DNA of 64,000 bases, from positions 5,216,001 to 5,280,000 of the forward strand of contig OZ244587.1 of assembly GCA_965218095.1 (NCBI GenBank), read 5' to 3'. Positions 21,861-23,441 of the stretch are shown piece after piece. Within the stretch, counting starts at the first letter, position 1. Each line of letters opens with the position of its first letter. This stretch comes from Candidatus Poribacteria bacterium (GTDB lineage: Bacteria > Poribacteria > WGA-4E > PCPOR2b). Under the pieces are notes generated by a model. The model made no database searches and was not told the origin of the DNA. It saw only the letters and a program-made list of their open reading frames with translations. A program made the position numbers and the translations under genes.

Positions 21861-22555
21861 ATGACTGGCTCAATTCTTGAACGGTGGGATATCACACCCG
21901 AAGAACTTACCGAGGTTATTGACCAGAATCCGAGCCTTCGCGGTATGATTCTTGGATATTTGGCAGAGTTGAAACCGAAAAACTTTGGTTGTCGGGTAAA
22001 GGGATTTCGGACGTGACCAAGCATGACGATCACGATCGAAAGAAGAAGGGAGACCGGGTGATCCGCTATAAAAAGCATGAGTTTACCTTTGAGTCCAAGT
22101 CCTTGCAGACAGCGATGATCAGGAAGACGGATGATGGTTGGGTGGGAAAAGCACAAGTTGACGCCAATGACCGCCGAGAGGTGGTCTTGCCAGACGGCAG
22201 CACCGTCACAACCACTTGCTTGCTAAAAGGAGAGTTTGATATGCTGGCCGTTAACATTTTTGCCTTTGAAGATACTTGGCGCTTCGTTTTTACGAAGAAT
22301 TCCGATCTGCCCACATCGAACTACAAGAAGTACACGGAATATCAGCGCCAGCATTTGTTGGCTACATTCGTCGAAGTTCACTGGCCCCCTAAGCCTCCAT
22401 TTTCCGAAGAGCCATTCACGTTGATGAACGAGATCATTCAGAACCGGTATGAGATGCCTTTTTTCCCTTCGGAATTTTCACGAACACAAGAAAGTAGGAA
22501 TGGTTTTTCCTGGCGTGAACCTGTTTCAGCAATCTGCTCATCCCAGGCCTATTAG
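21861..22555 (+). pseudogene. NruI/Sbo13I-like Type II restriction endonuclease, frameshift near 21976
   Basis: MTGSILERWDITPEELTEVIDQNPSLRGMILGYLAELK / LWLSGK...DDHDRKKKGD...ESKSLQT...TTCLLKGEFDMLAVNIFAFE resembles R.NruI as recalled; the two halves are in different frames. Confidence 0.75.
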
Positions 22556-23192
22556 GCCGCACAACGACGAACAGGTCCTTACAGAAGAAACCCATTTCTG
22601 CATATGCAGAAATGACTTCGACGTGGGTGAGATTTTGGCGATTAGCACTTACTTCATCCTGGCATTTCACAATGAACACGCCACGGTCACGCAGTACGCG
22701 ATGGGCTTCGCGTCCACCTTCTTCGTAGAGTTCGATGACCGCTGCGTGCCATTTTCCGCCTCCATTTTTTGGTGCTTCGTGTCCATTCGAGTAGTGGTCA
22801 CGAAACGCATTATGTGTTCCTGCACCGGCTTTAATCGAATTACGATTTCGGAAGAATCCCTCCATGTAAGGCGGATCAAAGACAATACAATCAAACGATT
22901 CATCCTCGTAGGGCAGATTACGGCAGTCGGTTCCATCAGCGATGTCTGATGGATGAAAGTCGTACTTCTCGATACGAATTTTCCGCCAGAAGACACCTTT
23001 TCCATAGGTAACGTCAGCAATCTTCGACCCTTCCGGGACATGGAGGCGCAGCACATTGGGAAAGATGTCTGCATTATTCCCTACATAGGCCGATAAGACC
23101 AGATTAGTTGTGGCGACCCCGTCTGGTCTTTTTCGTCCCGATGGTGTCCGTTCTTCCGGCGTAAACAGGAGGTCTAATTGTTGTTGCGCCAT
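22434..23192 (-). CDS. Amino (N6A/N4C) DNA methyltransferase, convergent with the REase
   Basis: Motif I-like [11 protein letters not shown] before motif [25 protein letters not shown]. Confidence 0.88.
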
Positions 23193-23195
23193 TGC

Positions 23196-23327
23196 CTAAC
23201 CGCCTTTCCCAAACTCGCTTTTATGGATGTCTCTGATAACGTCCGCCATTTTTCCACCTTTTCGTGTGCACTCTACTTTTATGGCTGAATGAAGGTTTGC
23301 GGGCACATCAATGGTTAGCCGTTTCAT
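23196..23327 (-). CDS. 43-aa ribbon-helix-helix (ParG/CopG-like) regulator
   Basis: MKRLTIDVPANLHSAIKVECTRKGGKMADVIRDIHKSEFGKGG; stop 3 nt before the MTase ATG; below ORF-track cutoff. Confidence 0.8.
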   Translation of the reverse strand: MKRLTIDVPANLHSAIKVECTRKGGKMADVIRDIHKSEFGKGG

Positions 23328-23392
23328 TTTGGATTTCACCTAGAATCCGACAGCTTGTTCACAGGCAACTAATTTTTTTCGGACGTATCTTT

Positions 23393-23441
23393 GTCGTATA
23401 TTATAATTTACGATTATACGACTGTGGTTATGGGTTGTCAA
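23393..23441 (-). promoter_or_regulatory. Consensus sigma70 promoter with overlapping operator-like inverted repeat
   Basis: TTGACA(23441-36)-17-TATAAT(23418-13); IR GTCGTATA-N14-TATACGAC at 23393-23422. Confidence 0.85.

Follow-up and report, generated by a model that had tools for sequence, protein, structure and literature searches.

A ribbon-helix-helix gene ahead of the methyltransferase in NruI/Sbo13I-type restriction-modification modules, a candidate repressor of the methylase operon

Genes at the locus

A 64,000-nt stretch of contig OZ244587.1 from a Candidatus Poribacteria bacterium (the whole stretch is called the window below, and positions are counted from its first letter) contains a three-gene restriction-modification (R-M) module at 21861-23441, the region under study. 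The module consists of a restriction endonuclease (REase) gene on the forward strand, a convergent DNA methyltransferase (MTase) gene on the reverse strand, and, directly upstream of the MTase gene, a small open reading frame (ORF) for a ribbon-helix-helix (RHH) protein (Table 1). An earlier account of this DNA, made from the letters and their ORFs and referred to here as the sequence-only reading, had described the convergent genes, the 43-aa RHH ORF, its promoter and an 8-bp inverted repeat, and each was found where it had been placed. The two convergent ORFs, reported to overlap by about 120 bp, share 122 bp (22434-22555).

Table 1. Positions of the module's features and of its surroundings in the window
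Feature	Position	Strand	Basis or remark
Possible N-terminal remnant of integron integrase, 31-aa ORF	21594..21689	-	Phage_int_SAM_4, 15.8 bits
Promoter-like site TTGACT-18-CATAAT, in attI-like stretch 5' of REase	21712..21741	+	10/12
Two hairpins in REase leader	21752-21786 and 21802-21823	+	Inverted repeats of 14 nt (93%) and 9 nt (89%)
REase N-terminal part, up to frameshift	21861..21975	+	Residues 1-38 match relatives; ORF 21861-22016 (51 aa)
1-nt deletion site breaking the REase frame	21975..21976	+	Gap at column 116 of alignment A3
REase remainder, -1 frame, with E-S-K catalytic motif	21977..22555	+	ORF listed as 21989-22555 (188 aa)
MTase, intact, M.NruI/M.Sbo13I family, G-K-G loop then DPPY	22434..23192	-	252 aa
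RHH core ORF, 43 aa (ATG 23327); GTG start at 23339 gives 47 aa	23196..23327	-	Stop 3 nt before MTase ATG
Shine-Dalgarno-like hexamer AGGTGA, 8 nt before ATG 23327	23336..23341	-	Read from sequence
Decayed N-terminal tail of ancestral long RHH	23340..23404	-	DNA alignment A2 and by-eye frame comparison with P0121-P0124
Putative operator, inverted repeat GTCGTATA-N14-TATACGAC	23393..23422 (arms 23393-23400 / 23415-23422)	-	8 bp, 100% complementary
Promoter of RHH-MTase operon, TTGACA-17-TATAAT	23413..23441	-	12/12; -35 at 23441-23436, -10 at 23418-23413
attC-like 3' end closing the cassette, AACTGAAC-N7-GTTAGG	23547..23577	+	Pattern match; repeat family D4

The MTase scores 32.0 bits on Pfam N6_N4_Mtase (cut-off 26.7). 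Its G-K-G (residues 64-66) and D-P-P-Y (residues 106-109) are invariant in all 28 sequences of an alignment of the family (A1), and its motifs run X, I, then IV, with DPPY in motif IV, which is the gamma-type order given for Sbo13I/NruI-type MTases in the available text of PMC2890505. A tblastn search of a plasmid collection matched it to the MTase of pSB13 (NC_019357.1) with 56.2% identity over 96% coverage (E=1e-89). This 5424-bp Shigella boydii plasmid is annotated with a helix-turn-helix (HTH) regulator gene followed by a gene for a hypothetical protein of 224 aa, and a DNA methyltransferase gene runs towards them. As described in the accessible parts of Zhu et al. (2010, PMC2890505), Sbo13I is an NruI isoschizomer that cuts TCG^CGA and lies on a 5.4-kb plasmid of S. 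boydii C13, with sbo13IC and sbo13IR in the same direction and sbo13IM in the opposite one; the same text gives the NruI system without a controller (C) gene, a Corynebacterium REase relative that carries an HTH-protein annotation, and EVK as the predicted catalytic motif. We equated pSB13 with the Sbo13I plasmid because the host, the size (5424 bp against "5.4 kb") and the gene layout agree.

The REase gene is broken. Its N-terminal piece has 71% identity over 35 aa to the pSB13 REase, and the second piece has 60% identity over 136 aa (E=1e-57) to the same 224-aa protein, with the ESK of the window aligned to the EVK of pSB13 in a (P/D)D...E-x-K site. The two pieces form a single frame in relatives. 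Between 21975 and 21976 the window lacks one base that all six aligned homologues contain (A3), which bears out the frameshift proposed from the letters. The proposed relationship to NruI held as well: judged by homology to pSB13 (56% for the MTase, 60-71% for the REase), the cassette enzymes are NruI/Sbo13I-like. PDB sequence searches with the MTase and the REase gave nothing useful, and NCBIfam held no family above its cut-off for the REase, the RHH protein or the MTase.

The small ORF ahead of the MTase codes for an RHH protein and not for an HTH protein of the C type, as had been suggested. It scores 20.2 bits on Pfam ParG, just below the cut-off of 21.4, and also matches omega and 56B_RHH; its PDB matches include ParG (1p94, E=0.014) and omega (2bnw, E=0.04). 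The Pfam scan matched it to no HTH family, whereas the C genes of relatives reach 37-60 bits on HTH_3. An AlphaFold2 model built from a 15-row alignment (mean pLDDT 79.9) is extended at residues 1-9 and helical at 10-23 and 27-42, giving a predicted strand-helix-helix topology of the RHH superfamily (MetJ/Arc/CopG/ParG). The PDB matches listed by Foldseek for this model are mostly RHH proteins (VapB, NikR, Arc, CopG; TMq 0.6-0.76), and none of those listed has E <= 0.001, as is usual for 43 residues. Prediction of a homodimer from two copies scored 0.19 against a mark of 0.42 (A4), which speaks neither way on a dimer. The strand residues K-R-L-T-I-D do not vary among the 15 aligned family members (A4), and the window core has 72-83% identity to its relatives.

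Regulators in related loci

In a scan that took a single genome from each species, at least 594 related loci were found, and the comparison below covers the best 80. A REase homologue is present in 66 of these (61 convergent with the MTase, three tandem and two divergent), and the other 14 have none within the stretch examined. The search for regulators used Pfam on ORFs no longer than 140 aa that stop near the start of the MTase or the REase. Five layouts were found. A ParG/omega-like RHH gene ends 1-13 nt before the MTase in eight loci (L002, L008, L011, L012, L014, L015, L016 and L018), a CopG-type RHH_1 gene lies 5' of the MTase in two (L056:3580-4026 and L061:2842-3057, from Planctomycetia and Micrarchaeota), and an HTH_26 gene occupies that place in two from Pyrinomonadaceae (L037:3736-3957 and L053:3684-3986). 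An HTH_3 (C) gene lies 5' of the REase in 22 loci, and also in pSB13 and a Vibrio plasmid. No regulator was found in the remaining 46.

The eight ParG/omega-like loci, called the RHH loci below, span Spirochaetota, Nitrospirota, Binatota and Planctomycetota. Their RHH proteins score 16.9-25.8 bits on the ParG model, five of the eight passing its cut-off, and that of L008 also passes 56B_RHH. The REase is convergent in all eight and intact in seven (171-199 aa, with 16-59 bp of overlap with the 3' end of the MTase); in L018 it is split into two frames (L018:3254-3583). The arrangement of an RHH gene and MTase facing a REase, which the sequence-only reading had proposed to look for, is thus present in 8 of the 80 loci and in four phyla. 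A ParG-like RHH gene and a C gene occur together in none of the 80.

A quick maximum-likelihood tree was constructed from 82 MTases, with L056 left out. All nine RHH rows, including the window, sit within a single branch of 25 rows (SH-aLRT 90) from which C genes are absent; a different branch, of 18 rows (SH-aLRT 93), has C genes in 15 of them. Placing the five regulator classes on the tree takes 18 changes, compared with 31.7 in shuffles, and none of 200 shuffles was as low. One locus, L017, retains an apparent remnant of the RHH C-terminus.

Linkage of the two genes probably extends further. A profile search with the RHH family gave 3217 proteins with E <= 0.001 among the candidates scored, and the 120 relatives listed comprise 104 of 56-88 aa and 16 of 42-51 aa. 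Some of the short entries are gene-caller choices, such as P0205 (47 aa), which comes from the L002 contig although a 69-aa ORF is present there. For 19 of the 120 listed RHH clusters, the longest contig has exactly the same size as that of one of the 120 listed MTase clusters, and one RHH/MTase pair carries adjacent NCBI locus tags (IT425_03070 and IT425_03075). These shared contig sizes and adjacent tags give indirect support for linkage well beyond the eight loci. Fusions of the two proteins were absent from the six longest (272-311 aa) of the 120 listed MTase relatives, whose N-terminal extensions are unrelated.

The surroundings of the RHH loci bear on whether the gene belongs to the R-M module at all. 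It could be a passenger, a partition protein of ParG/omega type or an antitoxin-type protein that lies beside the MTase by chance and has no part in R-M control. Its best family matches are indeed ParG and omega, and one relative is named ParG by NCBI. However, no ParA or toxin families were identified among the flanking ORFs scanned, no ParA-type or toxin gene comes next to the RHH gene, and what follows in 8 of 8 loci from four phyla is an MTase 1-13 nt downstream. The flanks are unrelated host genes, and the RHH gene excludes C. We regard a passenger as very improbable. The 39 flanking ORFs scanned code mostly for ordinary chromosomal domains, with one transposase fragment in L014 and no integrase families. 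The RHH module is therefore not specific to cassettes, and the tie to a mobile integron cassette suggested for the window does not carry over to its relatives.

Promoter block, decay and a proposed circuit

The DNA upstream of the MTase was aligned for the window and the eight RHH loci (A2). Homology begins at the -35 hexamer, and the conserved block reads roughly CTTGAC-N17/18-(T/C)CGTAAAATCG(C/T)AAAT-N-ATGAAATACGA. Positions -15 to +20 are conserved in all nine sequences, and the tail-coding DNA just 3' diverges. The invariant bases are 23419-23417, 23413-23412, 23409, 23404-23403, 23401 and 23396. TTGAC and a -10-like hexamer precede the RHH gene in seven of the eight loci. In relatives the RHH start codon follows the -10 hexamer by 5-9 nt, so their RHH mRNA is probably leaderless or nearly so. 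The window contains two perfect TTGACA-17-TATAAT sites where 0.02 are expected; the only one besides the operon promoter is at 14475-14503 (+).

The inverted repeat of the window spans the -10 hexamer, the region of the transcription start site (TSS) and the former start codons, and its right arm is the former start region itself (ancestral codons 2-4). Around the TSS, six of the nine sequences (window, L002, L011, L012, L014 and L015) have a dyad of 7 or more matched bp, in differing registers. The perfect 8-bp form noted in the sequence-only reading belongs to the window copy only.

The 43-aa RHH gene of that reading is a real ORF that represents part of a longer protein. Relatives have an ORF of 66-81 aa with an N-terminal tail ahead of the RHH core, and this tail (MKY..., V-R-E, F) is conserved at the protein level in 12 of 15 rows of A4, the other three being short forms. 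The window tail has three lesions. ATA stands at 23404-23402 where relatives have ATG, the A7 run at 23379-23373 is one base short against the frame of the 69-aa relatives P0121-P0124, and a TAG (23342-23340) lies in the frame leading into the core. With the start codon lost, the A7 run short and the TAG in frame, what survives as the 43-aa ORF is the core of the 66-81 aa form, and, as far as its upstream DNA indicates, this ORF now has a new start led by a Shine-Dalgarno (SD) sequence. Taken with the frameshifted REase, these lesions indicate that the window module is decaying to an orphan MTase behind an RHH core that has lost its tail. Decay of module parts is not unique to the window. In L016 (3751-3800), ATT replaces the leaderless ATG of the other RHH genes and the -10 hexamer is weaker, and the REase of L018 is split as described above. 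The MTase closest to that of the window (84%), from a Spirochaetia locus (L001:3964-4003), has TTGACA-N17-TATGAT 6 nt before its GTG. This locus lacks both RHH and REase, its promoter abuts the MTase start, and its sequence marks it as a clean orphan-MTase derivative.

We consider it probable that the RHH protein autorepresses the RHH-MTase operon of this NruI/Sbo13I-type Type II module and so does a controller's job from the methylase side. The operon has two genes, a ParG/omega-like RHH gene first and the MTase gene second, behind a near-consensus sigma-70 promoter. An RHH dimer bound to the dyad, which covers the -10 hexamer, the TSS and the first codons of the RHH gene, would repress the operon. 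In a newly entered cell, MTase would be made in an early burst from the strong promoter. As RHH protein accumulated, the MTase would fall to a low steady level and less antisense transcription would run into the convergent REase gene, so that transcriptional interference with the REase would also ease. The REase would be read from whatever lies 5' of it, which is host genes in relatives and, in the window, perhaps the attI-side promoter (the 10/12 site at 21712-21741). The logic would be that of Kpn2I, carried by another fold and with the RHH gene co-transcribed with the MTase.

Among the eight RHH loci, the regions upstream of the REase have no conserved promoter and no second operator; they resemble each other only within the close pairs L011/L016 and L014/L015, and in L002 and L012 the REase stands directly behind another gene. 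The REase gene has no conserved promoter of its own and would be read from outside. In L012 the gene directly 5' codes for a DUF4145 protein (L012:5345-5989, -), its stop 2 nt before the REase ATG, and this protein may be an extra component of that locus. In the window, the region as a whole holds three promoter-like sites where 2.5 are expected, so the site at 21712-21741 is not significant by itself. The REase leader RNA (21742-21870) folds better than its shuffles (z = -3.1; 0 of 200 shuffles fold as well). The second dyad of this leader (TATACGGAA / TTCCGTCTA, 21802-21823) has a faint resemblance to the RHH promoter block of relatives. One could take this dyad, which is like the CGTA/TACG cores of that block, as a sign that the RHH protein is a dual controller in the manner of C.Esp1396I and controls both the REase promoter and its own. 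The resemblance amounts to 4-6 bases, though, and neither the variable REase upstream regions of the eight loci nor the position of the REase behind another gene in L002 and L012 agrees with it. Such dual control is very improbable.

Decay offers a different explanation for the window. The cassette may be a relic in which the 43-aa ORF is unmade or inactive, the MTase is a constitutive orphan and the perfect repeat is a chance event in AT-rich DNA. This account draws on four lesions, namely the REase frameshift and the three defects of the RHH tail, on a background of 0.8 perfect 8-bp inverted repeats per kb, and on L001, in which an MTase persists with a bare promoter. On the other side, the RHH core ORF is intact, remains 72-83% identical to relatives and keeps all the invariant strand residues. 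It has a good SD sequence 8 nt before its ATG and a 12/12 promoter, and such short forms (42-51 aa) account for 16 of the 120 relatives listed, although some are gene-caller choices. We judge a relic unlikely for the window; it would be compatible with autorepression in the rest of the family.

The lost tail raises another possibility, namely that the conserved tail has a protein target (MTase, REase or RNA polymerase) and that the RHH protein is more than a repressor. ParG and omega tails contact partner ATPases. The protein-level conservation in 12 of 15 rows points in this direction, as does the loss of the tail together with the REase in the window; that joint loss is, however, a single case. 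We rate this the least probable of the alternatives.

Several observations weigh against autorepression as we propose it. Without its tail, the window protein may not act like the rest of its family. The window contains 51 perfect 8-bp inverted repeats with spacers of 8-20 nt in its 64 kb, so the repeat is weak evidence taken alone. The dyad is weak or absent in three of nine sequences (L008, L016 and L018), its register is not fixed, and the invariant bases of the block could be explained by the -10 hexamer and the start codon alone. The absence of a conserved promoter or second operator upstream of the REase belongs here as well. Within the 25-row RHH branch, 13 loci keep the REase without RHH, so the regulator is dispensable or has been lost repeatedly. 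The counts come from the best 80 loci and from short ORFs close to the gene starts, which also tempers them.

Comparison with known systems places the module nearest to Sbo13I and NruI, with which it shares homologous enzymes, convergent R and M genes, the gamma-type motif order with DPPY and the (P/D)D...E-x-K site. It differs in its regulator. In Sbo13I an HTH C gene precedes R, and NruI lacks a regulator, whereas the window and its eight relatives have an RHH gene before M; in addition, the window REase is frameshifted and TCGCGA specificity is assumed here. Kpn2I offers the closest regulatory parallel. In that system, as given in the available text of PMC6237814, the C protein represses a strong M promoter, R is weakly expressed and independent of C, and the operator lies inside the C gene. 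The RHH module would share a strong M promoter under repression by a small dedicated regulator, an R gene served by a weak promoter outside the control of that regulator, and a regulator site that reaches into its own coding region. C.Kpn2I, in contrast, is an HTH protein divergent from M, and the window regulator is an RHH protein co-transcribed with M.

C proteins in general (C.PvuII, C.AhdI and C.Esp1396I) resemble the RHH protein as small DNA-binding proteins of R-M modules that are autoregulated, as the RHH protein would be, and that set the order and ratio of M to R. The C.PvuII mRNA is leaderless (PMC2175313, accessible text), as that of the RHH genes in relatives probably is. C proteins have an HTH fold and a gene 5' of the REase, whereas the RHH gene of the window, like that of all eight RHH loci, is on the strand opposite to the REase and lies 5' of the MTase. 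No activation step is expected for RHH, and the two never co-occur (0 of 80 loci). Omega of the epsilon-zeta system and ParG are the best sequence matches and have the same plan of an RHH core and a flexible N-terminal tail. They autorepress at repeats that overlap their promoters, as the RHH protein would; for omega, the consulted part of a 2013 review (PMC3874152) describes this autorepression. They differ in that no partition ATPase or toxin partner is present here, an MTase gene follows both in the window and in all eight RHH loci, and the ParG score of the window protein is below the cut-off. In SsoII and Ecl18kI, the MTases carry an N-terminal HTH that represses their own gene (cited in PMC12707154, in the text available). 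Negative feedback on the M promoter is the control point there and would be here, where the RHH regulator is separate from the MTase.

In the literature searched, a scope outside which subscription journals and REBASE fell, no paper was found that describes R-M control by an RHH protein. In their accessible text, the reviews PMC3874152 and PMC12707154 cover HTH C proteins, HTH domains borne by MTases, promoter methylation and antisense RNA. RHH proteins are mentioned only for regulators of toxin-antitoxin (TA) systems in that text of the 2013 review, and neither "ribbon" nor "RHH" occurs in that of the 2025 review (PMC12707154). Elsewhere, the passages seen use the term ribbon-helix-helix for a ParG partition protein (PMC3346939), and the CopG/RHH passages of PMC12016545 and PMC10853773 concern a TA pair and DndE.

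More tentatively, RHH proteins may form a second, independent class of R-M controllers. They would be leaderless autorepressors ahead of the methylase with an operator that overlaps their own start codon, evolutionarily interchangeable with HTH C proteins within one enzyme family, and with a tail that perhaps adds input at the protein level (REase or MTase). If so, the RHH gene would make the module self-sufficient in any location it reached, among them an integron cassette. Timing in mobile DNA has its textbook example in R-M control, and the four layouts of one enzyme family (no regulator, C-R, HTH-M and RHH-M) form a natural experiment in which different regulators tame the same toxic gene pair. 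The main interest lies in this family-level architecture and not in the window's own copy. The family also supplies testable material in a protein of 43-81 aa, a 30-bp site and a consensus promoter. For integrons, the module would be an example of a cassette that brings its own strong antisense promoter.

Recognition site, relatives and integron surroundings

The recognition site of the cassette enzymes, taken over from the family, is probably TCGCGA. Avoidance of this site was considered as a clue to specificity and dropped. The window has 8 copies against 13.9 expected under a Markov model, and at least 12 other palindromic hexamers are more depleted, so the count says nothing on specificity. 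Strongly depleted palindromic hexamers by the same model include CAGCTG (0 vs 8.8), CTCGAG (1 vs 12.4), TTCGAA (3 vs 15.1) and ACTAGT (0 vs 2.1), and the host may carry, or may once have carried, other R-M systems.

Relatives of the MTase number 7841 proteins with E <= 0.001, and in the plasmid and phage collections they occur in only four plasmid and nine phage records. Six of the phage records are from mycobacteriophages (Wheeler twice, Niza, Pelly, Dexes and Dallas) and hold an MTase of the NruI/Sbo13I family with 57-60% identity. One methyltransferase is annotated under the match in those six, and these MTases could serve the phages as self-protection against NruI-type restriction.

The module is plausibly the first cassette behind a deleted intI, judging from the elements on either side of it. 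On the REase side, the 31-aa ORF scores 15.8 bits on Pfam Phage_int_SAM_4 (cut-off 27, E=0.019) over profile positions 1-24 of 85, and it may resemble the N-termini of IntI proteins. A PDB sequence search with this ORF gave no recombinase. The ORF breaks off 33 nt away from where a Zn-dehydrogenase gene (20550-21560) starts, and the integrase seems to have been deleted. Dependence of the REase on the integron promoter Pc is plausible. On the other side, the attC-like 3' motif that closes the cassette has three matches in the window (23557, 24144 and 29815) where 0.01 are expected. The 5' half of the R-M cassette's own attC was not found, and its own stretch (23445-23585) folds no better than shuffles (z = +1.05).

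Palindromic repeats separate co-oriented single ORFs from 23593 to about 30200, and three of the five stretches folded beat their shuffles (z -1.6 to -3.2). The ORFs from 23547 to 33136 code for a DUF5069 protein, two membrane-like proteins, a DUF6174 protein, a Cache-SpoIIE phosphatase and a GNAT acetyltransferase. These array ORFs are co-oriented and separated by attC-like palindromic repeats at 24096, 25746 and 28947. Two IS3-type transposase pairs follow the array, at 30243-31414 and 32031-33136.

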